The position numbers and the translations under genes were made by a program. Below, piece after piece: positions 42,521-64,000 of a DNA stretch of 64,000 bases (within the stretch, counting starts at the first letter, position 1; the number at the start of each line of letters is the position of its first letter). The stretch spans positions 558,001-622,000 of the forward strand of contig CM026548.1 of the NCBI GenBank assembly GCA_014905635.1, written 5' to 3'. The DNA comes from Scenedesmus sp. PABB004 (lineage: Eukaryota). The notes beneath the pieces are model-generated. The model was given only the letters and a program-made list of their open reading frames with translations, had not been told where the DNA came from and did no database searches.

Positions 42521-45450
42521 TCACGTCGAGGTTGTGTCGACGATGAACCCATCGCTGGAGAGGTGTGAGGGCACGATCTGATACCCGGACGACCAGATTG
42601 TGTCCCGCGCCGCGCGGTGCAGCGTGCACGCGTAGCCGACCGCGGGCCCGCCCGTCGCGCGCATCAGCGCGCATGCGTCGAGCGATGCGCACGCGGCCGC
42701 GCACGCGGGCAGCGCGTTGCCGGGGCCGAGGTCGAGCAGCAGCCCGTCGCCGAGGGCGAGCGAAGCGGGCAGGTAATACCAGGCCGCGTCGACCGCCGCG
42801 CCGTCGGCGAGCGCCTTGAGCCCCACGGCCGCCAGCGCCGTGCCCGCACCGGCCGCGGCGCCGCGGTCGAGCGCGGCCAGGCCCTCGCAGCGCGCCGGCG
42901 GGCCGTCGGTGTGGCGATAGAGGAAGCAGCCGGGCGCCGCGCCGCACGCCGCCGCGCACGCGGCCTCGCTGCCCGCGGCCGCCGCGCCGAGGCTCGCCCA
43001 GGCAGAGGCGTCCGACAGAGCGATGTAGGTGAGCTCACTTGAGCCAGTGAGCGGCCACGTCGCGATGCAGTCGCTGCCCGACGACGCGCCGCGCGGCGAG
43101 GTCGTGCCGGGCGGGCAGGCGGAGCAGTTGCCGGACTGGGCGCCGACGGAGAAGGTCGCGTAGCCGCAGCGCGCGCAGCCGGTGGCCGACGCGCCGTAGC
43201 CCCTGGCGCACACTGGATTGATTGGTGGCGGGGGCGGGAAGGAGGCGCGCGCGCGCACGGCGTGAGACGCGGGCGCCAAGGGCGGTGCGCCGCGCACGCC
43301 GACCGCGCGGGCGAGCGCCGCGGGTGCCCCCCGCCCGCCCGCACTCACGGCTGCAGTCGGCGCGGCTCTCGGCACCGCCCTCCTGCGTCGTGGTGCCCTG
43401 CGGGCAGGGCACGCAGCTGCCGCCGGGGCTGTCGAGGCTGCCGCCCGCCGACCACCAGCCGCGGTCGCACGGCGACGGCGTGCCAGATCCGTCCAGCGCC
43501 CAGCCGGGCTGCACAACGCAGTCGCTGCTGCTGTTGGCGCCCTCCCACAGCGTCGTGAGCGCGGTCGCGCAGGGCGTGCAGGCGCCGCGGTGCGAGCCGG
43601 CGCTCCAGGAGCCGAGGCGGCAGAGCTCCGGCACCTGGGTCGGCCCCATACCCCAGCCCGGCTTGAGCAGGCAGTCGCCTGGCGAGGTGTAGCCCGACGA
43701 GGCCGGCACGCCTGCGCCGCCCCCCGGCGCGCGGCTGCGCGTGGGCGACCGGGCCGCGCGCGCGGCCGCGCGGCGCAGCCTGCGCAGCCGGCGCGGCCGG
43801 ACCCGCCCCACCCCGCCCGCGCCCGCGCCCGCGCCCCCGCCGCACCCGTGAGCACGTCGGGCGTGGTGGTGCTGGGCGGGCAGGCGTTGCAGGGGTAGCG
43901 CCGACTCGCCTCGACCGGCTCGCCATACCCGTAGCGCCCGCGCTCGCACAGGCGCGCCACCAGGCCTCCGTCCAGCCCGCCCTCGCCGCCGAAGCCAGGC
44001 GGCAGCAGGCAGTCGTCAAACTCGAGCGCGCCCTCGCCGGCGGTCGTGAGGTTGGCCCCGCACTGCGCGGGCCCGGGCGGCCGGCGGTGGGGTCGGCGCG
44101 GGCCGGCGCGCGCGACCGGCGCGCCGCGCGCGGCTGTGCGCTCGCGAGCGCCCACCGGCACGCAGGGCGCGAGGCTCCACGCGCTCTTGTAGTAGCCGCG
44201 GGGGCAGTTGGTGATCGCACCGGGCGCCCCCTGCTCCATGCCGGGCGGGACGAGGCACATGGCGGCGCTCTCGCTGCCCTCCTCCTCTGCGCGCGCGGCG
44301 CGGCGCCGTCGGCGGCAGCGCCTTCGGCGGGGTCCGCCGGCTGCTGCCGCGACCAAGCCGGTGGTGGCTCGGCGCGGCGCCGCGCGCTGCCCCGCCGCTG
44401 TGGTCAACATAGAAACCCGTCGCACCCGTCTTGAGCCCCCCGGGGCAGGGCGTGCAGCTCCGGTTGGGGCTCTCAGAGTCACTGTACGTGTGCAGCGGGC
44501 ACGGCCTGGCGGTGCCGCTGGGGTCGACATAGAAACCTCGGACGGCCAGGCTGCATGCCTCCGCGCTCGTGCTGCCCTCGCCCACGGTCGTCAGCCAGGG
44601 CCCGCACGGCTCGCACGGGCGCTCGCTGGCGCTGAATGCGGCGGCAAAGGTCCCCCGCGGGCACAGGCGGCCGATGCCGTTGAACACGAACGAGCCGGCC
44701 GGCGCGCCGCAGTCGTCGCGGCTGGCCTTGCCGCCGCCGTCGGTCGTGAGCCCGCTCGCGCAGCGCGCGCACGCGCTGGTCGTGCGGCCGACGCCATAGG
44801 TGCCGCTGGGGCAGCGAGCGCCCGCATACGTGACCGCCCCGGTCGCCTCTTTCACGCTCGTGCGGCCATACCCCGGCAGCGTCAGGCACTGCGGCGCGCC
44901 GCGAGGGGGTGGTGGTGGGGTGAGACGGGGTGCCGAGGCGGCGCTGGCGCTGCGCGTGCTGGCACACGCGCCTGCTGGAAGGAGCGCGCGCCGGGCGAGT
45001 AGGTCACGAGCCCGGCGGGGCAGTCGACCGGCGGCGCGCTGCCGCCCGTGCGGCCCGGGCCGGTGCAGACCTTGCCGCGCGGGCAGGCCGCGCACGTGGC
45101 GTTGCCCTGCGCCGTCAGCCCGGCGCCGCAGTCTGCACGCACACGGCACGCGGGCGCAGAGCGGTGAGCGTGCGGCGCGGCGGCGACGCGCGCGCCGACG
45201 GGTGCCGCCGCACGTTTCTGCGCCGCTCACCGCAAAATCGAGCGTCGTCACGGCGAAGGACAAAGCCCGACGCGCAGGTGGCGCAGACGAGCTGTGATGC
45301 GCGCTTGCCGCTCACCACGCGGCACGTCCTGCAGCCAGGCATGGCGCTGCAGTCGTTGCCGCGCGCCTGGAGCAGCGTCCTTCCAGCGCCATCGCTCAGC
45401 GTGATCACTAGGGCGAGGCAGGCGAGGCGGAGAATGGCGAGGCAGGCCAT
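42521..45450 (-). CDS. Secreted Cys-rich repeat protein (GCC2/GCC3, ephrin-receptor-like repeats) with C-terminal PAN/apple-like Cys motifs
   Basis: Signal peptide MACLAILRLACLALVITLSDG followed by many CPxGxY...CxxC..GLTT...A.S..DC units. Confidence 0.85.
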
Positions 45451-45846: not shown

Positions 45847-48157
<2,311 letters not shown>

Positions 48158-48501
48158 GGCCAGAGCCGATCGACTGGCGGCCGCGCGGGCGGCCAGGAGC
48201 ATTCACGACCGCCAAACGGCGCCGGGAGCGTCGCCGCGCGGCTGCTGCTGCGCGTGCGGCGGCTGCGGCTGCGGCGGCGGCGCACGCGTGTGGTCGGCGG
48301 CGCGGTGCGGCGCGGTCGCTGCTGACGCTGGGCCTGCGGCGGTGGCGAGCCCTGAGCTGAGACAGCTCTCAGCGAGCTTGCACGCGGTCCGCCAGCAACC
48401 GCCACCGGGGCTCAGCGCTGAGCCCTGGACGCCTCGGCCGGCGCGCCGCGCGCGCGACCACGCCGGCGAGGCCGCGTTACCAAGGGGCTGAGGCTGATCG
48501 C

Positions 48502-51500
48502 TCACTTGCCCGGCACGATGAGGTTGAGGATCTTGCCGGGCACGTAGATGACCTTTTTGACCTCCTTGCCCTCGACCTGCTTCGCCACGTTGGGCAGCCC
48601 CCGCGCCGCGGCGAGCGCGTCGTCCTGGCTCGCGGCCACGCCGAGCTCCACCGTGCCGCGCATCTTGCCGTTGACCTGGCGCGGCGCGGCCGGGGTCGGC
48701 GCGGCGCGGCGGCGGTCGGTCGCGCTGCGTGCTCGACGCGGCGCAGCGCGGCGCGGCGCGGCGCACGAGCCGCCGCGCGCGCGGCGGCGGCGGGGGCGGC
48801 GGCGCACCTGCACCGGCAGGTTGATCGTGTCGACGACCAGCAGCGACTCGTCCGCCTCGGGCCAGGGCTCGTACGCGAGGCTCGCCCCGTGCCCCAGCCG
48901 CGCCCACAGCTCCTCCGCGAGGTGCGGCGCGTACGGGCTCAGCAGCAGCACAAACGGCTCCAGCGCGGCGCGCGGCCTGCGCGGCGGCGGCGGCGGCGGG
49001 CGCTCGGGCCGCGCCGCGCGGCGCCCTCCCTGCGCGGCGGCCGCGGCGTGCGGGCCCAGCCAGCAGCGCCGAGCCACGCGCCCGGCGCGCCCCGCGTGCC
49101 TCCCTGGGCGCCGCCCGCCCGCCGCCCCGGCGCCGCGCCGGCGCACCGGCTGTCCCACTTGTACACAGCGTTGACAAACTCCATCATCGCCGCGATGGCG
49201 GTGTTGAATCGCAGCTCCTCCGTCTCAACCGTGACCTTCTTGATCGCGCCGTGCAGCGCGCGCAGCTGCTCCCGGCTCGGCGCCTCGTCGCTCACCTGCG
49301 CGGCCGCGGCGGCGGCGGGGGCGGCGGCACGGTGCGGCGGCACACGTCTGCGGTTGCGCCCCGCGCGCCGTGCGCGGCGAGCGGCTCTGGCACGCGGGCG
49401 AGCCCCGCCCCGCCCGCGGAGGCGCGCGCGGCCTCACCCCGGCCTCAAACGCGCGGTACACGCGCGCCAGGAAGCGGTGCACGCCCTCCACGCCGCGCGT
49501 GTTCCACACCTGCCGTGGCCGCGCGCGCGGCAAGCGGGCGGGCGTGAGCGAGCGTGCTGGCCGCGCGTCGCCGCCGCCGCCGCCGCCGCTCGCGCCCGTG
49601 CCTCGGCCCCCGCCCCCGCCCACGCGGCCCCGCGCCCGCGCTGCGCCGCGCCGCGCGGCCGCGCGCGCCTTGGTGTCGCGCAGGGGCCCCATGAACATCT
49701 CATACAGGCGCAGGCTGTCGCCGCCATAGGCGCTGACCACGTCATCCGGGTTGACCACGTTGCCGCGTGACTTGCTCATCTTGTGCGCGCGCGCGCCCAC
49801 GCGCACCGACGGGTCGGACCGCAGCACGTAGCCGTCGCCGCGCTTGTCGACGTCCGCCTCGGACACCTGTGTTTTGGGGCAGGGCGGGCGCGCGCGCGCG
49901 TGTGGGGAGGGCGAGCACGGGCGCGGCGCGGGGACTGCGCTGCGCCGCGGCGCCCGGGCGAGCAAGCCGGACCCCCGCGCCGCGCGCCGCGCCGCACCCG
50001 CACGACCGTCGCGTCGGGCGCGTCGTCGGCGCAGGGCCGCCCGTCGGGGCCGACCGCGTAGCTGAATTCCACCTCGCCCAGGATCATGCCCTGGCTCACC
50101 AGCCGCGCAAAGGGCTCCTTGGTCGACACGACGCCCAGGTCGTACAACACCTGGCGGCCGGGCGGTTCGAACGCACGGCACGGGGCGGGTGGGCGGGCGG
50201 GCGGGCGTGCGCGCGGGCGGCCGCCGCGGGTCGCGGCCGGCGCGCGGCAACGCGCGCGCGCCACAAACACACTCGCCCCGTTGTGTCACAACTCCACCAC
50301 AAACCAGCTCGAGGCGAAGCACGCGCGACAAACACAAAACAAGTGCGTCACGACCGAGCACGGCAGGCGGCCCACCTTGTGCCAGACGCGCGCGTAGAGC
50401 AGGTGCAGCACACGCGGCAGACACGAAGAACAAAAGAACAAACACAAAGGAACAATGCAGACGCCACGGCGCGGCAGGCGGCGCACCTTGTGCCAGAAGC
50501 GTGCGTGGAGGAGGTGCAGCACACGCAGACAACACAACAAAAGAACAAAAGAACAAAACACACAGGAGCAATGTCTGCACAGACGCCACGGCGCGGCAGG
50601 CGGCGCACCTTGTGCCAGAAGCGTGCGTAGAGGAGGTGCAGCACCGCGTGCTCCGCGCCGCCGACGTAGAGGTCGACGGGCATCCAGTACGCCTCGAGCG
50701 CGGGGTCGACCGGCGCGCCGGGGTTTTGGGGGTCGATGAACCGCAGGTAGTACCAGCACGACCCCGCCCACTGCGGCATCGTCGACGTCTCGCGCCGCGC
50801 CGGCCGGCCTGGCGGTGTGTCGGTTGGGCGGCGCGCGCGCGCGCGCGCGCGCGGCGGCGGCGGCGGCGGCGTGGGCACGCGGGGCGGGTATGTGTGCGGC
50901 GGACGGGGCCCGGGCGCGGCGGCGCGCCCCGCACGCGGCGGCGCGCGGGCCGCGCGGCGGCCGCACCCGTGGCGGGGTCGGTCGTGTTGACCCACGACTT
51001 GATCGCCGCGAGGGGGCTCTCCGGCGTGCCGCTCGGCTTGAACTGGTCCGTCACGGGGAGCTCGAGCGGCAGGCTCTCCTCCGGCACCGCGACCGGCGAC
51101 CCGTCGCCGCCCTCGGGGTAAATGAGTGGGAAGGGCTCGCCCCAGTAGCGCTGCCGCGCAAAGAGCCAGTCGCGGAGCTTGTAGTTGACCTGGGGCGGGC
51201 GGGGAGGGCGGGGAGGGAGGGTGGGCGGGGAGTGCGGGGAGGGTGGGCGGGGAGGGGGCGTGGCCGAGCCGCGCGCGCGGGGCCGGGCGTGGCGGCTGGG
51301 CCCCGCGCCGGCGGCCGGGCGGCGGCCGGGCGGCGGCCGGGCGGCGGCCGGGCGGCGGCCGGGCGGCGGCCGGGCGCACCTGGCGCTTGCCGATGCCGCG
51401 CGCCTCGAGCCACGCAATCGCCTGCGGCGGGCAGCGCGGGCGGGCGCGGGCGCGGGCGTGGGCGTGGGCTTGGACGACGGCGCGTGCGGGCAGGGCCGAG

Positions 51501-54365
51501 GGCGCGCGCCGCTCGGCCCGGCGCCGCCGCGCCGCCGCGCACCGCGTCCTTGGCCTCCGCCGTGGGCAGGCCGTCGATGCCGAGGCCGCCGCCGCCCGCG
51601 GCGCCGCTGCCGACCGCGACGCCGGGCTCGCAAAACGGCAGCGCGCCGTCGCCGCCGCCGTCGCCGCCGGCGTCGCCGACCGCCGGCGCGACGACGCGCA
51701 CGACGGGCAGCCCAAACTTGGCCGCAAACTCGTGGTCCCGCGCGTCGTGGGCGGGCACCGCCATGATGGCGCCGCTGCCGTACCCGCCGAGCACGTAGTC
51801 GGCCACCCACACCGGGATGGGCGACCCGGTCGCAGGGTTGACCGCGTAGGAGCCTGCCGGGACGGCGGGCGGGCGGGAGGGAGCGCGGCGGGCGGGCGGG
51901 CGTGCGTGTGTGCGCGTGAGGGGCGCGGGTTGCGTGCGTGCGAGGGGCGGGTTGTGTGTGAGGGGCGGGCGGCGGCGCGCGGGCGGGCGCGCGGCGCGGC
52001 GCGGCGCGGCGCGGCGGGCCGCGCCTGTGAAGACGCCCGACTTGTCCTTCTGCAGCTCCGACCGCTCGCGCTCGCTCTTGTGCATCGCCGCCGCCACGTA
52101 CGCCGCGACGGCCGCCTCCTGCCCGCCCGCCGCGAGGCCCTGGGCGAGCAGCGGGTGCTCCGGCGCGACGACCATGTAGGTCGCCCCCGCGAGCGTGTCG
52201 GGGCGCGTGGTATAGACGGACAGGCTCGCGCCCGCCGGCAGCGCGCTGCCCGCGCCGGGCTGCACCGCGAACGTGATCTCCGCGCCCTGTGCGGCGCGGC
52301 GGCCGGGCGGCGGCAGGGGGGGGGGGTCAGCGGCCTGCGAGGGTCGGCCCAGGGGGCGCGCGCGCGCGGCCGGCCGGCGGCAGCGCCCCTCCCTCCCGCC
52401 CTCGGCGGCGCGCGCCGCGCGCGCCGCCCCCGCGCCGCGCCCGTCTCCCCCCGACGCGCGCGACACTCCCGCGCGCCCCGCCCCCCGCCCCGCCGCCGGC
52501 CGCGCAGCCCGCGCCGCCGCGGCCCGCGCCGCACACACACGCACACGCACGCACACACACGCCCACACCTCTGAGCGCCCGATCCAGTTGCGCTGCATGT
52601 CCTTGATGCTGTCCGCCCAGTCGAGGCCGTCCAGGTCCTCCAGCAGGCGGTCGGCGTAGGCGGTGATGCGCAGCATCCACTGCTTCATAGGCAGACGCAC
52701 CTGGCGGACGCGGCGGCGGCGCGCGGGGGACGCGGCGGACGCGGCCGCGGCGGACGCGGCGGGCTCGGGGCGGGAGGGCGGCGCCGCCGGCGGGCGAGCG
52801 CGCCGCGGCTGGGCCGTCGACCCCAAACCTCACACCCGTCTCCCGACCCGCTGAGCGGCGCTCGAGCCTCGCCCCCAAACCGCGCCCTCAACCCTAAACC
52901 CCGGCCCCCTCTACACCTCCGTCCCCTAAACCCCGCCGTCGCTAACCCCGCGCCGCACCACGGGGTGCCCGCCGCGCTCGCTCTTGCCGTCGATGACCTC
53001 CTCGTTCGCCAGCACCGTGCCGAGCGCGGGGCACCAGTTCACGGGCACCTCCGCCTGGTACGCGAGGCCGCGCTTGAAGAGCTGCAGGAAAATCCACTGC
53101 GTCCATCTGGGGGCGGGGCACGGGCGGGGACGAGGGAGGGGGGAGGGCGCGCGCGGGCGGGCGGGAGTGCGGGGTGGGCGAGAGTCGGCGAGGTCAGAGG
53201 GGGCGGGAGCAAGTGAGTGGGGGCGCGGGCGCCGCGCGGCGTGCTCACTTGTAGTAGCCCGGGTCGGTGGTCGACACCTCGCGCTGCCAGTCGTAGCTGA
53301 AGCCGAGGCTCTTCAGCTGCCGCCGGAAGCTGCGCGGCGCGGCGGCGGGCGCGGGCGCGCGCTCGGCGGGCGCGGGCGCGCGCTCGGCGCGCGCCCCTCG
53401 GCGCCGCGCGCGCGGGCGCGCGCCTCCGCCCCGCCCGCGCGCCTCCGCCCCGCCCGCGGCGCCGCCGTGCGGCACACCGGTCGATGTTTGCGCGCGTCGT
53501 GTCGGCGGGGTGCGTGCCCGTCTGCAGCGCGTACTGCTCCGCGGGCAGGCCGAAGGCGTCCCAGCCCATCGGGTGCAGCACGTTGAAGCCACGCATGCGC
53601 TTGTAGCGCGCGGTAATGTCGGTCGCGGTGTAGCCCTCGGGGTGGCCTACGTGCAGCCCCGCGCCGCTGCGGCGCGCGGCGCAGCGGCCGGCGGGGCGGG
53701 CGCGGGCTGGGTGCGGGCGCGCGGGCGCCGCCGACGCCTGGCCGCCGCTGGCGCCGAGGCCCAGGCGCGCGCGCGCTGCGCGGGCCGCTGGCCCGGCAAC
53801 GCGCCCTTTGCCCGTCTGCTGCGTGCCAGGCCTGTGCCCGGTCTGTGGTGTGCCCGGCCTGTGCTCTGCGAGTGCTCTGCCAGTGCTTTCCTGCGCGCGG
53901 CCTGTGCTCCGCCTGTGCTCCGCCTCTGACCGGCCTGTGGTGCTCTCTCTCTCTCTGCCTGTGGCCTCACCTGGGGTAGGGGAACATGTCGAGCACGTAG
54001 TACTTGGGCTTGCTCGTGTCCACGGCCTCGGGCGTGCGGAACGTCTGCTGCTCCTCCCAGTACGCCTGCCAGCGCGCTTCGATGTCCGCAAACGGGTAGC
54101 CCCCCGCGGCGGCGGGCCCGCCCGCGTCGCCGCCCGGCTCCGACGCCGTCAAGGGCGCCACGGGGTCGGCCACGGCGGGGCGCGGGCGCGCCGCGGCGGC
54201 GCGGCGCGCGAGCGGCGCCGCGCGGGCGGCGGCAGCAGCGGCGCCGCGGCCGCCGGCGTGCAGGCGCGCCCAGCCGGTCAGGCCGGCCGCCAGGGCGCGC
54301 ATGGAGGTGGGCGCGGGCCGCGTGGTCGGTGTAGCGCCGCTCAATTGCCGGCCCGCGAGCGCCAT
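48502..54365 (-). CDS. leuS: Leucyl-tRNA synthetase, organellar (bacterial type)
   Basis: [41 protein letters not shown] (CP1), [54 protein letters not shown] and the C-terminal VQVNGK...[12 protein letters not shown]. Confidence 0.97.
50359..50650 (-). repeat. Tandem triplication (period 122 and 111 bp) of a LeuRS exon 3' end plus splice donor, inside an intron
   Basis: Three copies of GTGCTGCACCT.CTC.ACGC.CGC.TCTGGCACAAG|GTG.GCCGCCTGCCG on the minus strand, with donors at 50608, 50486 and 50375. Confidence 0.92.
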
Positions 54366-55510: not shown

Positions 55511-56254
55511 GGCGCGGGTGGGCAGAGGGCCGCGCACGCGTGAGCGCGCGCGCTGCTGGCGGCGCGCTGCTGGCGGCGCGTGCTGCCGGCGGCGCGCTGC
55601 TGTTGAGCACGCGCGCTGCTACTGCGCACGCGCGCTGCTGTTGAGCACGGGGTCGCGCACCAGTGGCGATGATGGAGATGCCGCTGACGATGTAAGCAAA
55701 GTAGCAGAGGTTGGCGCCGTTGTCGGTCGTGCCGAGCAGGCAGACGTTGGACACGTCCGCCGCAAACGTCGCGCCGTCGAGGCCGACGTGCACGCGGTGC
55801 AGGCGCAGCGCGGTGATGACGATGATCGCCGCCGCGACGCCCGCCTGGCGCCGGCAGGCAGGCGCGCGGCGGCGACGGCGCGGGCGCGGGGCGTGTTAAG
55901 GCGGCCGCGGCGGCCGGGGTGCAGGCGCCTGGCGGAGGGGCTGCTGGGCCTGGGGCTGCGCCGCCGCCGCCGCGCGCAGCGGTTGCGGCAGCTGCCGGTT
56001 GCAGCTCCGCCGCCACACCGCGCCGCGCGCGTGGCGGGGGCGCGGGTGCCCGAGGCGGTGCGAGGTCGATGGTACAGCCTCCCGGGCGCGCGTGCCGGCA
56101 CAGCGGCGGCCGCCTGGCGCGGAGAAGGAGCTGCGAAAGCTGCCGGCATGGAAGCTGCCCGCCCCGCCCTGGCCGCGCAACCGCACTGCCCGGCGAGCCG
56201 CACCTGCAGAAAGCACGCCAGCCCCGCCAGGCAGGACGAGCGAGAGAAGCCCAT
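54904..56254 (-). CDS. Four-TM Cys-rich membrane protein (MARVEL/CASP-like topology)
   Basis: Spliced: MGFSRSSCLAGLACFLQ/AGVAAAIIVIT...NVCLLG...NLCYFAYIVSGISIIAT/GVLSILQCCTCNLCGLG...LWVVA/GVIF...PEWRQLIPILSFVACGLFG...GTK/GIV*, with four hydrophobic segments. Confidence 0.8.
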
Positions 56255-56731: not shown

Positions 56732-57793
56732 ATGCCTCCCCGCGTGCCTGCCCTTCTCCTGCTCGCCCTGGCGGCGGTACTGGCGCGGTGCGCGGCGCCG
56801 CCGCCGGCAGCAGCGGCGGCGGCACCGCCGGCAGCAGCGGCGGCGGCGCCCCCGCGATCAGCGGCGACGCTCACCTGCTGGACGACCGTCCCGGTCGCGC
56901 CCGGGCAGCGCCCGCTGGCGTCGCCCGTGGCCTACGACGCCGCGCGCTACCAGCTGTGCGTTCGCTACTCGGTGCGCTGCAGCGCGGACAACCCGAGCTG
57001 CCTCGCCGCCGAGGCGGTGGCGGGGACGCTGCGCACCTACTACACCGCCGCGACGGCCGCCACGTGCCGCGCGCTCTTGAGCAACGCGGAGGCGCTCCGC
57101 GTGCGCGGCGTGCTGTGCTGCCCCGCGCCGGGCTGCAACAGGCCCGACCCCGCGCGCGACCCGTCGACGCTCGCGGTGAGCGACACGTGGCTCAGCCGCG
57201 CGCAGCGCCCGCCGCAGCGCAAGGCGGCGGTCGCGGGCGGCACGGCGCCCGCGGGGCCCGGCGGCACGGTGCCCGCGGGGCCCGGCGCCGCGGCGCCGCG
57301 CGCCGGCGTCGTCGCGGCCGCGCCGCGCGCCGGCAATGCGAGCGACGCCGGCGCCGACGAGGACGGCGGCCCGGCGCACGCGATCGTGTGCGTGCACAGC
57401 CTGCCGCGCACGGCAGGACGGCACCCAGCGGCGGCGGCGCTTGTGTTCACGGCGCCCGAGCTCACGCTCTGCTCCGCGCACGAGGCGCGCTGCGCGGCCG
57501 GCGCGCCGGGGTGCACCCCGGACGAGGCCAAGGCCGGCGCGTGGGTGTGGCGCTACTCCGCCGCGAGCCCGGCGAGCTGCGAGGCGCTGGAGGCCGCCGC
57601 GGCGCGCCCCGGCGCGGGCGTGCGGCACGTCGCGTGCTGCGGCGCGGGCGCGGGGTGCAACGCGCCTGACCCGGCGCTCGACCCGCGCACGCGCGTGGTG
57701 CCGGCGGCGAGCCTGCCGCCGCAGCTGCTGCTGGTCGTGCCGCCGCGCGGGGGCGCGGGCGCGGGCGCGGGCGGGCGGCGCGCGCTGGCCTGA
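56732..57793 (+). CDS. Intronless secreted protein (353 aa) with two tandem 8-Cys domains resembling Ly6/uPAR (three-finger) domains
   Basis: Signal peptide MPPRVPALLLLALAAVLARCAA. Domain 1 is LTCW...LC..Y..RC-x6-C...Y.AA..ATC..L...LCCPAPGCNRPDP. Domain 2 is IVCV...LC...RC-x6-C...Y.AA..ASC..L...ACCGAGAGCNAPDP. Confidence 0.8.
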   Translation: MPPRVPALLLLALAAVLARCAAPPPAAAAAAPPAAAAAAPPRSAATLTCWTTVPVAPGQRPLASPVAYDAARYQLCVRYSVRCSADNPSCLAAEAVAGTLRTYYTAATAATCRALLSNAEALRVRGVLCCPAPGCNRPDPARDPSTLAVSDTWLSRAQRPPQRKAAVAGGTAPAGPGGTVPAGPGAAAPRAGVVAAAPRAGNASDAGADEDGGPAHAIVCVHSLPRTAGRHPAAAALVFTAPELTLCSAHEARCAAGAPGCTPDEAKAGAWVWRYSAASPASCEALEAAAARPGAGVRHVACCGAGAGCNAPDPALDPRTRVVPAASLPPQLLLVVPPRGGAGAGAGGRRALA

Positions 57794-57817
57794 CCTCGCG
57801 GGACGGGAGCGCGTGGG

Positions 57818-57822
57818 TTACA
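57818..57822 (-). promoter_or_regulatory. TGTAA green-algal polyadenylation signal, probably for the PAQR gene
   Basis: TTACA on the plus strand about 520 nt downstream of the PAQR stop. TGTAA is the known chlorophyte poly(A) signal and is rare in this GC-rich DNA. Confidence 0.55.
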
Positions 57823-58343
57823 TCTTGCTCCCGAGCGCACACCCGGCCGCTGCCGCGGCAAGATCACACGCCGGACCCGTGCCGGACCCGTGCGCTGGCT
57901 GGCTAGGCCGAGTGAGTGCTTCGCGCAGCGACTCTGCTAAGGAGGACAGATCCGGAGTGCAGTGCAAGTGCTGTCGACGCGCAGCTTTCCAGGCGAGCGC
58001 GCGCCGCTGCGCACGCCGCCGCCGCTTCTTGCCAGTGCGCCCGTCGCAGCGCTCCCCCCGCGCTGTACAGCTAAGCACACCGGAGCCGCGCCATGCACAA
58101 AACGCTCCTGCTGCTGCGCCCCGCTGGACCGGCGCCGGCGCCGCGGGCGCGCCGGAGCATACGGGAGAGAGAGAGAGACGACGACGACGACGACCGCGGC
58201 CCGCGGCCCCCCAGGGGACGGCGGCGGGGCGGAGCGACCGCACGTACACGCGCCGCCGCCCCCGGCCGAGCCGTGCTGACAAAGAGACAACCCAACAACG
58301 CGCGCCGCCGCCACGCAGCAATCGGCAGCGCCGCGCCCGCGGC

Positions 58344-60548
58344 TCACAGCGCCGCGCCCGCGGCCGCCGCGGCGGCGAGCTGCTGCGCCAGGCGGCTCTC
58401 GAGCGTGTCCCACACGGCGTCGATGCCGGGCAGCGGCGCCTGCCCCGCGGCCGCCGCGGCGGCAAGCACGTCGGCGAGCGGGCCGTTGACGCGGCCGGGC
58501 GCGGCGCAGCCGCCGCTCGCGTCGCGCCACTGCAGGAGGATGAGTATCGCGCGGTAGTGCACCAGCGCCGCCGCGACGACGGCGGCGTGCCAGAGCTGGT
58601 GGGAGTGGCCGAGGATGTCGAAGCGCCCCGGGTACCAGCGCTCCGGCACGCGCGTCGCGTAGATCGCCGCGCCCGCCTGGCGCGCGGCGGCGGCGGCGGC
58701 GGCGGCGCGGGGGAGCGAGCGGCGGCGCGGCGCGCGGGCGCGTCGGAAGGCGCGCGGCGCGCGGCTGCGGTCGCCGGCGCCGCCGCTGAAACCACCGCCG
58801 CCAAACCACCGCTGCCGCGCGCGGCGCCGCTGCGCACCAGGTATATTGCGCCCATGAATATGTCCAGTTGGAACGCGGCGCGGATGGCCCACACGTGCCC
58901 GCTGGTCAGCAGCAGGTGGGTGACGGGCACGACGCCCCACGCGCCGAGCATCGTGAACAGCCCCGCGCGCGCGGCGCGGTAGTGCCGCGCCTGGAAGCAG
59001 CTCGGCAGCGACAGCGCGACCACGACGACGCCTGCGGCGCCCCGGCGGCGGGGCGCGGCGCGGGTGGGCCGGCGCGCGCGGCGCACGCGCTCCTCCCTCT
59101 CGCGCCCTTCTTCGCCGCTCTCGCTCCTCCCTCCCTCCCTCCCTCCCGGCCTGCCCCGCCTGCCTCCCGCGCGCACGCCGCCGACCTCCCCGCCGCCGTC
59201 CCGCGCGCGCTGTCCCGCGCGCGCCCTCCCGCGCGTGCCCTCCCCCCCGCGGCGCCCACCCATGCTGACGGTGGTCGCGAGGTAGAAGTTTCGCCAAAAG
59301 GCGTTGCAGAGGAAGGCGTAGTACATGGCCGGCACAAAGCTCGCGACGATGAGCACGGCGATGCCGGCGTAGTCAAAGCGCCAGACCATCTCGCTGATGT
59401 GCCGCGCGCAGCAGCCAAGCAGGTGGCACGTGCCGCTCGTGAGCAGGCAGACGCACGCGCCGGCAAAGTAGACGTACACCGGCCAGCGCGGGACGGGCCA
59501 CTGCACGATGGGCGCGAGCTGCGCGCGCAGCGCGGCGCGCAGGCCGACGCCGAGCCCCGCCGCGCGGCTGTGCAGGCGCGCCTCGGCCGCGGCCAGGCCG
59601 TCCTGCAGGGTGTGCAGCCGCTGGCCGACCGCCGCGCCGACGGCGTGCAGGTTGCCCTGCACGCCGTCCGCGAGCGCGTGCACGCGGTCGCCGAGGTGCA
59701 GCCGCTCCTCCAGCGCGTGCACGCGCTGCCCCAGCCGCTCCTCGAGCGCGTGCACGCGGTCTCCGAGGTGCAGCCGCTCCTCCAGCGCGTGCACGCGCGC
59801 GCCGACGCTGTGCGACAGCTCCGCCAGCAGCCCCTCCACGTGCTCCGCCGTCACCGCGAGCGGCGTGGGCGGGTGCGCGGCAAAATACCAGGCGAGCGCG
59901 ACAAACAGCAAAAAGCCTGCGGCGGGGAGAGCGCGGGGAGGTCAGCACAGGCAGCGGCGGCGGCGGCGCCCGAGGGAAGCAGCCCGGCCTGCGCGCCGCG
60001 CCGCACCCAGGAAGTGCGTCCACACGTTGCCGGTCTCGTTGTGCAGGCTGAACAGGCTGCGTACGCTGCCGCGGATGGACTGCTCGGGCCGGTAGCTGCC
60101 CACGATGTACCTGCGGCGCGGGGCAGCAGCAGCAGCAGCAGCAGGCGCCGCGGCAGCGGCCACACGGTGAGCGGCGCGCCAGGCTGCGGGTGCCAGAAGC
60201 CGCGCACGCGGCGCCATGCGTGCCGCTGATGCTGCTGGCGCGCCGGCCGCGGCCTTGGGGCGGCCACCGCCACGACACGGCCGCGCGAACGCTGCAGCGC
60301 GCGCCGCCCGCCCGCCGCCGCGCAGCCGCCGCCCGGGCTCACTCGTTGTCCTTGAGGAAGTCGGGGAGGTCGCTGAAGCTCACGCTGCGCTGGCCCAGTC
60401 CCGGGGCGCTGCTGCGCGCCGCGCCGCGGCGACGTCGGGCGATGCCGCTGCCGTCCCCGCTCGCTGCGCGCAGCGCAGCCTCACGCGGCTCCCCGGCCAC
60501 CGTAGCGCGCCGGCGAGGCATTGTGGCGTCGCTGGGAGCGCCAGCCAT
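58344..60548 (-). CDS. PAQR/heptahelical transmembrane protein (AdipoR/HlyIII family)
   Basis: LPDFLKDNE/YIVGSYR, HNETGNVWTHFL, SGTCHLLGC, FDYAGI and PERWYPGRFDILGHSHQLWH. Confidence 0.95.
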
Positions 60549-60967: not shown

Positions 60968-62775
60968 TCACACCTGGGCCGCCCTGGGCGACCCCCCTGC
61001 TGGGCGCGCCAGGAGCGCGTCGCGCTCGCCGGCGCCGCTCGGCCCGCCCTCGCCGCCGCCGCCGCCCGCGCCGCGGTCCGACGCCGCGGCCGCCTTGGCC
61101 GCGGCCGCCTGCGCGGCCAGCTTCTGGTAGTTGTACGTGAACGCCCCGCCCAGCGCGACGGCGTAGCCCAGCAGCTGCAGCTCGGTCACCACCGACCTGG
61201 GCCACCGCGGCGGCGGCGGCGTGAGCGGCGCCGGCGGCGTGAGCGCGCGCGCGCCCGCCGCCCGGCCGTGAGACTCGGCGGCGCGCGCCGAGGGCTCGCC
61301 CCGCGCAGCTCCGCCCCGAGCTCGCCGAGCTCGCCGGGCCACCACCACCAGCTGGCGCACCCGTAGAGCACCATGCTGAGGTATATGAGCAGCACGTCCT
61401 TGGCCACGCCCGCGAGGTTCATCGTGAGCGCGCTCGTGCGGCCGATGAGCATGAAGATCGCGCAGTTGAGCGCGAGCGCGCTGCCCGCGCTCGCGAGCAG
61501 GAGGCCCGGCCCGACGCGCCACGCGCGCGCCGCGTGGTGCGCGGCGAGGCGGCGCGCCTCGAGCGCGGCGAACGGCAGCAGCAGGCAGGCGAGGCAGACG
61601 GGGCAGACGTGGAACATCGTGGTGATGGGGTTGAGCTTGATGCCCCGCGCCTGCAGCAGCAGCTGCACGAGCGTCAGCCGCACCGCCTCGGCCGCCATGC
61701 TGCCGCACTGCAGCGCGAGGCCGGCGAGCGACAGCACGACCTCGCCTGCGGCGGCGCGGCGGCGCGGCGCGCGGCGTGCGGCGTGGTGCGCTGCGCCAGG
61801 GAGCGCCGCGCGCGCGGCGCCACCGCCGCCGGCGCGCGGTCGCGCCGCACCGAACGACGCGGCCATCACGCCCGCGACGACGACCGCCAGCACGCACCCC
61901 GTGCGCGCGCTCCAGCGCTCCGTGCCCAGCACGGTGCCGACGGCGTAGACCAGCAGCGGCATCATCGCCTGCGCGCCGCCGCAGCGGCGGCGGCGGCGGC
62001 GGCGCGGAGGCTCGGCGGCCGCCCCACGGCAGCCCCGCAGCAGCGCTGGGGGGGGTGGGGCTGAGCCTGCGCTGGGGGCTTGAGCCTGCGCTGGGGGCTG
62101 AGCCCCTGGGGCTCTCTCTAAACCCTGCCGCGCGCCTTGAGCATCTGTATGAAGGAGACTGAGAGGTGGACGTACGCGGCGTTGCCGAGCCACAGCACGC
62201 ACGCAAAGAGCGCCCCGATCGGCACGACGCACCTGCGGCGGTGCCAGCGGCGGCGCCGGCGGCGGTGGGCCCGCGAACGCGCGGGCCCCCCGGCGCGGGC
62301 CCCCGTGCTGCGTGCCCCCAGGTGGGCCGCACCGCAGGTAGGTCTCGCTGGGCATGTCCGGCGCGTCGACGACGCCGCCGCGCACGAGCGCCGCGCTCGC
62401 CGCCCAGCAGAAGGCCATGTGCAGCCCCGTGAGCGTGAGCGGGAAGGGGAAGCCGCCGAGGCGGGGGTCCAGGATGTACTTGTTCAACCTGGGGGAGTGG
62501 AGCCGCCCCGGGCGACGCGGGCAAAGGGCGCGCGTCGGTTGCGTGCGTGCGGGCGGCCGGCGCGGCGCGGCGACAGGGAGCCAGCGCGCGCGGCGCCCAC
62601 ATGATCACGCCCGCGCTGAGCACGATCCAGAGCGCCATACAGCTGCGGCGGCGCGCGCGGCGCGCGGGTGGGCGGCGGCAGCGGCGAACAGCGGCGAGCG
62701 CCGCGCGGCCCCGCGCGCCGCGCACCCGTAGGCGGCCCCCACCGCCCGCGGCGCGGCGCCGGGGTCGCCCGCCAT
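60968..62775 (-). CDS. TPT-family nucleotide-sugar/sugar-phosphate translocator
   Basis: [17 protein letters not shown]...[57 protein letters not shown] and [14 protein letters not shown]. Confidence 0.93.
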
Positions 62776-63341: not shown

Positions 63342-64000
63342 ATGCTCATCCCCAAGAAGAACCGGCGGGAGGTGTACAAGTACCTCTTCAAGGGTGCGCG
63401 CGGCGCTGCACAGGCCGCGCGACCGGCTGCGCAGGCCGCGCGGCAGGGGCCGTGCCAGCGGCGGCACGGCAGCGGCGAGGCAGCGGCAGGGCGGGGCAGA
63501 GCGGGCGGCGGCGGCGGGGCCCCCTCGCGCCGCGGCACGAGAGCGGCCCGCTCCAGCAGCGCCGGGCCGCGCCGCCGCCTCACGCGACCCGCCTGCGCCC
63601 CGGTCCCCGCGGTCCCCGCGCAGAGGGCGTGCTCCAGGCTGAGAAGGACTTCAACCTGGAGAAGCACCCCGAGGTCGAGGTGCCCAACCTGCATGTCATC
63701 AAGCTCATGCAGTCCTTCAAGAGCAGGGAGCTCGTCACCGAGCGCTTCGCCTGGAGGCACTACTACTGGTGCGGCCGCTGCCGCCGCGGCAGCAGCCGCC
63801 GCGCGGGCGCGCGGGCGGGGAGGGGCGGGGAGGGCGAGGGCGTGCCCGCGGCGGCGGCGAGGCCGGCCGCGCGGCCGCCCCGCCCCGCCGCCCTCGTCGC
63901 CGCCGCCGCGGCCTCGTCTGCGCCGCCGCCGCCGCGACGAGCTCACGCGCCCGCCGCGCCGCCCGCCCGCCCCGCCGCCGCACTCAACACTCCAGGTTCC
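63342..64000 (+). CDS. RPS10: 40S ribosomal protein S10 (eS10), 3'-truncated by the window end
   Basis: Exons 63342-63393, 63624-63768 and 63997 onward give [67 protein letters not shown]. Confidence 0.97.

Follow-up and report, generated by a model that had tools for sequence, protein, structure and literature searches.

Two predicted three-finger domains in tandem in a probably secreted protein of Scenedesmus sp. PABB004

The coding sequence and its parts

In our study, we examined a stretch of 64,000 nucleotides of Scenedesmus sp. PABB004 (assembly GCA_014905635.1, contig CM026548.1, positions 558,001 to 622,000 of the forward strand), called the window below, and in it the gene at 56732..57793 on the plus strand. 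The gene was found to be a complete single-exon coding sequence (CDS) of 353 codons plus stop, running from ATG to stop codon. Its product, P0001, is quite probably a secreted, disulfide-locked extracellular protein that contains two tandem, divergent Ly6/uPAR (LU) domains and would act as a non-enzymatic binder. All positions are those of the window and all the parts of the gene are on the plus strand.

The product begins with a signal-peptide-like hydrophobic leader at about residues 1-23, MPPRVPALLLLALAAVLARCAAP (56732..56800), recognized from hydropathy; the starts of the relatives were also hydrophobic. Within the first 35 amino acids, the highest Kyte-Doolittle score of any 10 residues was 3.24, which is a crude heuristic. 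The leader is followed by a short Ala/Pro-rich spacer (56801..56863), which showed a reduced GC content at the third codon position (GC3). Domain 1 (residues 45-147; 56864..57172) was delimited as an LU/three-finger domain from the structural model, the structure comparison and a Pfam Toxin_TOLIP match of 9.6 bits on residues 76-136. It contained Cys residues at positions 49, 76, 83, 90, 112, 129, 130, and 135, followed by Asn136 and a PDPARDP tail. A Gly/Ala/Pro-rich interdomain linker (residues 148-215; 57173..57376) contained a single N-x-S sequon (N202) and the D(T/S)WLSR motif, which the closest relatives also have; the DSWLSRS motif was aligned in P0006 and was also present in P0005, P0002, and P0087. 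Domain 2 (residues 216-321; 57377..57694), delimited from the structural model, the structure comparison and its homology to domain 1, contained Cys residues at positions 220, 247, 254, 261, 283, 302, 303, and 309, followed by Asn310 and a PDPALDP tail. The C-terminal tail (residues 322-353; 57695..57790) was identified from sequence and hydropathy and consisted in part of a GGCGCG-type simple repeat. Its best 12-residue hydrophobic window was 1.64, under the threshold of 2.0 used for flagging tails that resemble a glycosylphosphatidylinositol (GPI) signal. P0001 contained 17 Cys residues in total, with C20 in the leader and 8 in each domain. No catalytic domain, transmembrane (TM) segment or kinase was found in the 353-amino-acid product by the Pfam scan and in the sequence.

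The spacing of domain 1 was LTC...C-x6-C-x6-C-x21-C-x16-CC-x4-CN-RPDPARDP, and that of domain 2 was IVC...C-x6-C-x6-C-x21-C-x18-CC-x5-CN-APDPALDP. The two domains shared 40% identity with an E value of 4e-19, far beyond chance. A sequence-only reading of the window had described an intronless open reading frame (ORF) with a signal peptide-like N-terminus and two homologous domains of exactly eight Cys, each starting with a hydrophobic-x-C, ending with CC-x4/5-CN-x-PDP, and joined by a Gly/Ala/Pro linker. All of these elements were recovered: a single frame ran across both domains, the hydrophobic leader was seen by crude hydropathy (Kyte-Doolittle 3.24), the Cys spacing of the two domains was near-identical, and both contained the [LIV]-x-C start and the CC-x4/5-CN-x-PDP-x-x-DP end, with residues 148-215 as the linker between them.

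Two simple repeats were observed within the CDS. A duplicated Ala/Pro-coding unit, a simple GC-rich repeat, was present after the leader (window 56800-56860, +), and a GGCGCG-type microsatellite (window 57745-57785, +) encoded a (GA)n stretch shortly before the stop codon. Due to these GC-rich simple repeats, the lengths of the repeat parts and the exact 3' end may vary.

The GC content of the window was about 78% overall and 72-85% in 2-kb bins, and the 64 kb contained 85 stop-to-stop frames that were 350 codons or longer; the length of an ORF alone is therefore worthless as evidence here. Several long ORFs overlapped the 56732-57793 locus on both strands. Such counts would suit a frame that is no gene and is open by chance, given the extreme GC content of the DNA. 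The codon-position GC of the 56732-57793(+) frame speaks against it, as it was 0.79/0.72/0.95 (GC3 of 0.95 vs. 0.72 at position 2), whereas the overlapping alternative frame at 57336-58982 (548 codons) was flat at 0.78/0.77/0.80; the strong GC3 bias was found in the P0001 frame alone. The GC3 dropped to 0.78 over the first 150 nucleotides of the CDS. No uninterrupted high-GC3 stretch found between 40 and 64 kb was longer than the P0001 ORF with its 318 codons, and the same scan showed the neighboring genes split into exons of about 40-250 codons. The internal duplication with eight conserved Cys, the colinear two-domain relatives, and the 86 profile matches at E ≤0.001 (29 at E ≤1e-10) among 1.84 billion representatives also contradict a chance frame. 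Its probability is negligible and it can be taken as effectively refuted; 56732-57793(+) is a real coding frame.

The two-domain relatives P0005 and P0006 were colinear with the locus in one frame over 56858-57745 (tblastn), and hence the domains are uninterrupted by an intron, as the sequence-only reading had stated. The composition of the gene matched that of its neighbors, from which it follows that the gene is native to the algal genome. No second copy of P0001-type domains was found within the 64 kb by a hidden Markov model (HMM) of the family.

Predicted fold of the two domains

The domains were modeled with AlphaFold2 (AF2) from a 36-sequence alignment. The model of domain 1 had a predicted local distance difference test (pLDDT) score of 95.3 and a predicted template modeling (pTM) score of 0.84, and that of domain 2 had a pLDDT of 94.7 and a pTM of 0.85. 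Both models contained the same order of elements: strand, strand, strand, short helix, strand, helix, and strand.

Each domain model was compared with 48,161 PDB representatives by VIA-align, with no Foldseek prefilter, and the best 50 rows were considered per domain. In each domain, ranks 1-39 of these 50 rows were occupied by three-finger proteins. The Z score fell over these ranks from 8.4 to 4.2 in domain 1 and to 3.8 in domain 2, and unrelated folds with Z ≤3.6 were found from rank 40 on in both domains. The best match was Prod1, with a Z score of 8.4 for both domains, a root-mean-square deviation of 2.2 Å (domain 1) and 2.3 Å (domain 2), and 71 of 71 residues. It was followed by kappa-bungarotoxin (Z 7.6 and 7.5 for domains 1 and 2, respectively, with 67 of 67 residues aligned), CD59 (6.9 and 6.8), and bucandin (6.8 and 6.6). 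SLURP-1, GPIHBP1, and Lynx1 had Z scores of about 6.3-6.4. The lower rows contained SLURP-1/2, GPIHBP1, mambalgin, Lynx1/2, PSCA, uPAR, Lypd6b, TEX101, CD177, C4.4A, and a salamander pheromone, and the ectodomains of TGF-beta, BMP, and activin receptors were found at Z 4.1-5.5. Since models that have no clear match commonly reach a best Z of 7-8 in VIA-align, the Z of 8.4 does not decide the matter by itself; the fold call rests on the unbroken run of 39 rows, seen with both of two independent models, and on the sequence signatures.

The structure search of the ESM Atlas gave 10 rows, all of which were uPAR/Ly6/CD59/quiver clusters (TM score 0.54-0.63). Among viral structures, Foldseek found no meaningful match (best E 0.38). 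The LU/three-finger fold had been proposed from the letters of the DNA, and modeling followed by structure comparison of each domain had been set beforehand as its test; the outcome was positive for both. The assignment of both P0001 domains to the three-finger/LU fold is thus supported by the predicted structures.

Relatives of the protein

A word-index homolog search with the whole of P0001 returned the self-match alone, and with the profile A2 it returned four proteins, the query and three that were already in A2. An exhaustive profile search was therefore needed to find the family. In this HMMER search, a profile of the two domains of P0001 was run against 1.84 billion cluster representatives, and 86 proteins were found at E ≤0.001; the E value was ≤1e-10 for 29 of them and ≤1e-30 for 6. 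P0064 and P0066 (E 1.6e-5 and 2.2e-5, respectively) were rejected as false positives, being repeat proteins that have no Cys motif; P0064 also carried strong unrelated Pfam domains. The family statistics exclude these two, as well as P0087-P0089, which are cluster members and not search matches. The alignments A2 and A3 comprised 34 of the 84 family proteins, the single-domain ones being chosen by eye.

The family contained at least 84 sequence clusters, P0001 included, and the pattern common to the 84 was [LIV]xC[YW]...C-x-RYQ[FY]-x-C-x6-C-T-x-x-E...W-x-W-x-Y...C...CC-x4-CN-x-PDP-x-LDP-x-T. By motif count, 43 proteins contained one domain, 24 contained two, 9 contained three, and 8 contained four to nine; the HMM-defined domain instances across the family numbered 174. 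Crude hydropathy detected a leader in 29 of the 84 proteins, a hydrophobic GPI-signal-like tail in 17, and a TM segment with a cytoplasmic tail in one. Many family entries are fragments, and the leader and tail counts are consequently lower bounds. The multi-domain, Pro/Ser-rich, and GPI-tailed relatives look like surface or matrix proteins, as judged from their sequences.

The closest relatives, P0005, P0006, and P0087, had the same layout as P0001, with a leader, a domain, a D(S/T)WLSR linker and a second domain. P0006 was 35% identical to P0001 over 296 amino acids (E 6e-53). The closest two-domain proteins P0005, P0006, and P0025 ended in long, non-hydrophobic Ser/Gly-rich tails that had no hydrophobic end.

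Thirty proteins were looked up, and organism names were given for P0002/P0087, P0003, P0005, P0091, P0013, and P0085, the others being from metagenome or run assemblies. P0002 and P0087 were from a transcriptome assembly of Enallax costatus, P0003 was from Scenedesmus sp. PABB004, and P0005 was from Scenedesmus sp. NREL 46B-D3. P0091 (UniRef100_A0A383V804) was from Tetradesmus obliquus and sits in the 90% cluster of P0062, a match of the two-domain profile at E 7.2e-6. P0013, with about nine domains, was a transcript of the colpodellid Alphamonas edax, the transcriptome of which may be contaminated by prey. P0085 was encoded on a 211-kb contig of the chytrid Rhizophlyctis rosea, and its single domain stood between a leader and a hydrophobic C-terminal tail.

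Expression was seen for close relatives, as the Enallax proteins P0002 and P0087 came from a transcriptome assembly. By the JGI naming convention, gene id 316528 presumably corresponds to the locus-tag suffix of P0005. This gene id is listed in a weighted co-expression (WGCNA) module of Scenedesmus sp. NREL 46B-D3, and the modules were built from 7,028 genes that passed an expression filter, according to PMC7955037. The identifiers of the Tetradesmus homolog gave no match in one supplement file of the Scenedesmus obliquus maternal-wall proteome (PMC11839794); the supplement of PMC12638912 showed nothing beyond chance digit matches.

The sequence-only reading had spoken of an undescribed algal family. 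Algal members (Scenedesmaceae) were indeed found; however, the family extends beyond algae to a chytrid and a colpodellid. A literature search of open-access full text and bioRxiv brought up no description of a three-finger family from outside the Metazoa, in agreement with the term undescribed, but the Tetradesmus obliquus homolog P0091 already bears the automatic UniProt name 'UPAR/Ly6 domain-containing protein'. Automatic annotation has thus made the data visible, and what is missing is recognition and description. The fold and the superfamily are well known; the signature of eight Cys, the finger-2 bridge, and the PDPxLDP tail is the family's own.

Arrangement of the cysteines

PMC6600238 gives the LU consensus as 60-90 residues with ten Cys paired 1-5, 2-3, 4-6, 7-8, and 9-10, and with Asn always after the last Cys. 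Each P0001 domain departed from this plesiotypic pattern in containing 8 Cys, as did 92 of the 163 domains in the family. The ten-Cys pattern is not kept by many accepted members either, among them the short snake toxins and domain 1 of uPAR.

In the AF2 model (domain numbering), C5 belonged to strand 1 and C32 to the beginning of strand 3, and C39 and C46 fell between strand 3 and helix 1. C68 was found in helix 2 just after strand 4, C85 and C86 at the end of strand 5, and C91 was followed by N92. In the model and the alignment, neither strand 2 nor strand 4 ended in a Cys that could form the 4-6 bridge, and there was no loop-1 pair. C39 and C46 were jointly lost, with the other six Cys kept, in complete domains of P0003 (693-808) and P0019.

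On these positions, the LU disulfides 1-5 (C5-C32), 7-8 (C68-C85), and 9-10 (C86-C91) are probably kept in the predicted structure. We infer that the loop-1 (2-3) and 4-6 disulfides are absent and that a local C39-C46 bridge is added at the tip of finger 2, the pairing being taken from the Cys positions rather than from the coordinates of the model. A non-standard spacing with an internal C-x6-C loop replacing a canonical disulfide had been suggested from the DNA alone; the Cys sites on the predicted structure and the joint loss in the relatives fit that suggestion.

Finger 1 was the least conserved part of the domain (0.7-0.9 bits per column), and its length often varied. Conservation was highest (2.1-2.4 bits per column) in strand 3, strand 5, the CC..CN motif, and the PDPxLDP tail. 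The pLDDT of the tail was above 90 in the last blocks of both domain models, and this high confidence suggests that the conserved PDPxLDP tail packs on the domain core.

Sequence link to the LU superfamily and ancestry

The LU CC-x4-CN signature was present in domain 1 of P0001 (C129, C130...C135-N136), and domain 2 contained CC-x5-CN (C302, C303...C309-N310). Of the 165 domain instances in the family, 161 had an Asn following their final Cys. One or more of the Pfam families UPAR_LY6, Toxin_TOLIP, Activin_recp, Toxin_cobra-type, and CD59 were matched at E ≤0.1 by 47 of 85 family matches, and nine reached the curated cut-off (P0018, P0022, P0023, P0029, P0037, P0049, P0060, P0070, and P0081). 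P0001 itself stayed under the curated cut-offs of the CL0117 clan HMMs (UPAR_LY6, Toxin_TOLIP, Activin_recp, and others). Other Pfam families in the relatives were scattered, sub-threshold, and confined to single proteins, with the exception of DUF7773, itself uncharacterized, which was found three times. As the only Pfam match of P0001 was to Toxin_TOLIP, beginning at the second Cys, reaching the final CN and covering positions 15-72 of the 72 in the profile, no known plant or algal Cys-rich Pfam family competes with the LU assignment first made from the sequence. A profile of 36 family domains had 21 matches at E ≤10 among the PDB sequences, all 21 being three-finger proteins (snake toxins, uPAR, and SLURP-1). 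The language-model features of the ESM Atlas pointed to TGF-beta receptor II, activin receptor, cobra cytotoxin, and SLURP-1 clusters (0.75-0.84), which are taken as leads only.

Besides the calibration of Z and the positional basis of the disulfide pairing given above, a number of results count on the other side. The Foldseek PDB list was headed by uPAR, alpha-bungarotoxin, Prod1, Lynx2, and CD59, but none of its 199 matches was at E ≤0.001; the best E was 0.24, and the TM score by query was 0.45-0.55. The sole Pfam match of P0001 had an E value of 2.1, with 9.6 bits against a cut-off of 21.2, and a single-sequence search of the PDB returned two unrelated matches, both with E >1. In 38 of 85 family matches there was no three-finger Pfam match at E ≤0.1, and the best E of the profile against the PDB sequences was only 0.016. 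Within the family, the C46 equivalent was lost singly in 6 instances and the C39 equivalent in 2, and 7-Cys domains also occurred. The expression data come from close relatives, and from these and from the leader the transcription and secretion of P0001 itself are extrapolated.

The marginal similarity of most members to animal LU families (9.6 bits for P0001; 38 of 85 without a match) also leaves room for convergence, in which the algal/protist family would have reached a three-finger-like, disulfide-rich beta fold independently of the animal LU domains. Small disulfide-rich folds are prone to converge; of the five plesiotypic disulfides, apparently no more than three survive, and the domain has gained two helices and the PDPxxDP tail. 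Convergence would have to account for the coincidence of idiosyncratic LU signatures, namely [LIV]xC, the adjacent CC, the spacing of 4-5 residues, and the C followed by Asn (161/165). Moreover, nine of 85 relatives pass the curated three-finger Pfam cut-offs, 21 of 21 profile-to-PDB matches are three-finger proteins, and part of the family has the same leader/domain/GPI-like-tail architecture. We consider convergence to be decidedly unlikely. Judging from these sequence signatures, the P0001 family most likely shares ancestry with the animal LU superfamily.

In reviews and surveys, LU/three-finger proteins are regarded as metazoan. The LU domain is called "widespread in the Metazoa kingdom" in PMC6600238. 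According to PMC13719153, a 2026 survey of EnsemblGenomes with 14 Pfam CL0117 profiles recorded none either in plants (169 genomes) or in fungi (1,500 genomes) and dated the origin of the three-finger fold to the transition to animal multicellularity. We tentatively suggest, as a possibility that falls short of a probable conclusion, that the LU domain may be an old eukaryotic extracellular module and not an animal invention. P0001 would then belong to a conserved, undescribed, non-metazoan branch characterized by 8 Cys, a finger-2 C-x6-C bridge, and a CN-x-PDP-x-x-DP tail, which would occur in chlorophytes, alveolates, and chytrids as secreted or GPI-anchored proteins of one to nine domains. 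If so, recognition modules of the Ly6/uPAR/TGF-beta-receptor type predate multicellular animals. Homology of the family to the animal LU domains would move back the origin of the scaffold, or else would require an explanation by horizontal transfer. The algal family would also offer a unicellular or colonial system for studying three-finger function where there are no nicotinic receptors, complement, or TGF-beta signaling.

Comparison with known three-finger proteins

The animal single-domain LU proteins (Prod1, CD59, Lynx1/2, SLURP-1/2, PSCA, and GPIHBP1) share with the P0001 domains the predicted fold, the [LIV]xC start, and the CC-x4/5-CN end. They are extracellular and have a leader, which is also probable for P0001. 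A number of algal and protist relatives, P0081 and P0091 among them, contained a leader, one domain, and a GPI-like tail, the layout of the animal Ly6 proteins. In contrast to the animal proteins, the P0001 domains contain 8 and not 10 Cys, with the 2-3 and 4-6 disulfides apparently gone and a finger-2 bridge apparently added, and they have two inserted helices, a long finger 1, and a PDPxxDP tail. P0001 further differs in its two domains, its tail, which is not GPI-like, its Pfam score below the cut-off, and its non-metazoan host.

Tandem LU domains in one chain are found in uPAR (three domains), C4.4A, TEX101, and CD177, which were structural matches of the P0001 domains at Z 4.3-6.0. The family profile was aligned with domain 3 of uPAR over ...CC-x4-CN-x-PD... 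(E 0.11). The domains of P0001 are about 70 residues apart, joined by a presumably disordered linker, whereas those of the uPAR type are packed; P0001 also has no GPI signal.

The snake toxins (Toxin_TOLIP and Toxin_cobra-type) have the eight-Cys three-finger fold in common with P0001, and the best profile match was the non-conventional weak neurotoxin 2mj0 (E 0.016). P0001 differs from them in having two domains of about 100 amino acids instead of a single one of 60-75, in its apparently different fourth disulfide, and in being algal and not a venom protein. With 9.6 bits against the cut-off of 21.2, two domains of about 100 amino acids, and an algal genome as its source, P0001 falls outside the snake toxins, and what it has in common with them is the fold rather than the function. 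The TGF-beta and activin receptors combine a three-finger ectodomain with a TM helix and a Ser/Thr kinase; P0001 contains neither of the latter two and is not a member of this group. P0091 of Tetradesmus obliquus contained the same 8-Cys pattern and a CN-KPDPALDP tail, and its source belongs to the algal family in which the nearest relatives of the window are found. Unlike P0001, it has a single domain, a stalk rich in Pro, and a C-terminal tail that is hydrophobic, and is Ly6-like and probably GPI-anchored.

Proposed role of the protein

By analogy, P0001 is likely to be a secreted or surface-exposed binding protein of the LU type. A binding role is proposed because all characterized LU proteins act by binding extracellular or membrane proteins, as stated in PMC6600238. 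P0001 would enter the secretory pathway via its leader, fold with four disulfides per domain, and be released. The core of each domain would consist of hairpin 1, hairpin 2, and a fifth strand, with two short helices inserted in fingers 2 and 3, and the CN-x-PDP-x-x-DP tail would pack back onto this three-finger core. The flexible Gly/Ala/Pro linker of about 70 residues would join the two LU domains, the presence of which may confer bivalency, and the variable finger 1 would be the likely specificity element.

Release rather than anchoring is proposed because P0001 and its closest relatives have no hydrophobic C-terminus. P0001 might instead be tethered to the cell surface, by a GPI anchor encoded on a missed 3' exon or by cross-linking to the wall, and serve in adhesion or in the organization of the wall. 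Such tethering would accord with the GPI-signal-like tails of 17 of 84 relatives, the TM segment of one, and the relatives that have up to nine tandem domains and Pro/Ser-rich stalks; the last 30 codons of P0001 also lie on a GC-rich simple repeat, which makes the annotated 3' end uncertain. Against these stand the non-hydrophobic Ser/Gly-rich tails of the closest relatives (P0005, P0006, and P0025), the hydropathy of the P0001 tail itself (1.64 vs. the threshold of 2.0), and the tblastn search, in which no further homologous exon was found downstream. Tethering is therefore regarded as unlikely, and P0001 is preferably read as a released binding protein.

Neighboring genes

The divergent neighbor of P0001 (54905-56254, -) was resolved by eye, from GT/AG borders and GC3, into five exons at about 56254-56204, 55843-55654, 55471-55366, 55229-55042, and 54914-54905. 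Its product of about 190 amino acids was Cys-rich and contained four hydrophobic segments (4-TM) and CC/CxC clusters. The ATG of this minus-strand gene is at 56254 and that of P0001 at 56732, in agreement with the divergent spacing of 477 bp given in the sequence-only reading. In the Pfam scan, three exons of the neighbor gave only sub-cut-off hits (DPM3, 18.6 bits vs. 25; BNLF2a; and Peptidase_U49).

The head-to-head arrangement, with 477 bp between the start codons, might allow a shared promoter region and had led to the idea that P0001 and the 4-TM protein form a pair of ligand and membrane partner. Animal LU proteins commonly modulate multi-pass membrane proteins, as is generally known and as is mentioned in PMC6600238. 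The adjacency of the two genes is, however, the sole evidence for such a pair, the exons of the neighbor belong to no Pfam family, and head-to-head neighbors are common in compact genomes. The pairing is considered very improbable. Among the pattern matches to related loci in metagenome contigs, examined for synteny, none of 91 was confirmed with A4 and none of 594 with P0008.

The convergent neighbor (57818-60464, -) was found to be a gene of the PAQR/haemolysin-III family, two of its exons matching HlyIII (E 8e-20 and 2e-16). Before the membrane core, a tandem 'RVHALEERL..LGD' peptide repeat was present in the N-terminal exon (59168-59911). The exon translations at 45850-54200 (-), 61004-62547 (-), and 63614-63850 (+) indicated a housekeeping context, comprising tryptophanyl-tRNA synthetase-like and leucyl-tRNA synthetase exons, a triose-phosphate-transporter-like gene, and a ribosomal protein S10e-like exon. 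A conserved exon of the leucyl-tRNA synthetase shared 84-86% identity with sequences of Scenedesmaceae, Enallax costatus and Tetradesmus obliquus included, 79% with Monoraphidium, and 76-78% with Chlamydomonadales, which places the alga among the sphaeroplealean Chlorophyceae and bears out the term green-algal used in the sequence-only reading. High-GC3 exons at 42554-44323 (-) encoded Cys-rich, extracellular-looking segments, with the repeat-like 'CPRGYYKS...C' and the 'CFLYRH...C' stretches.

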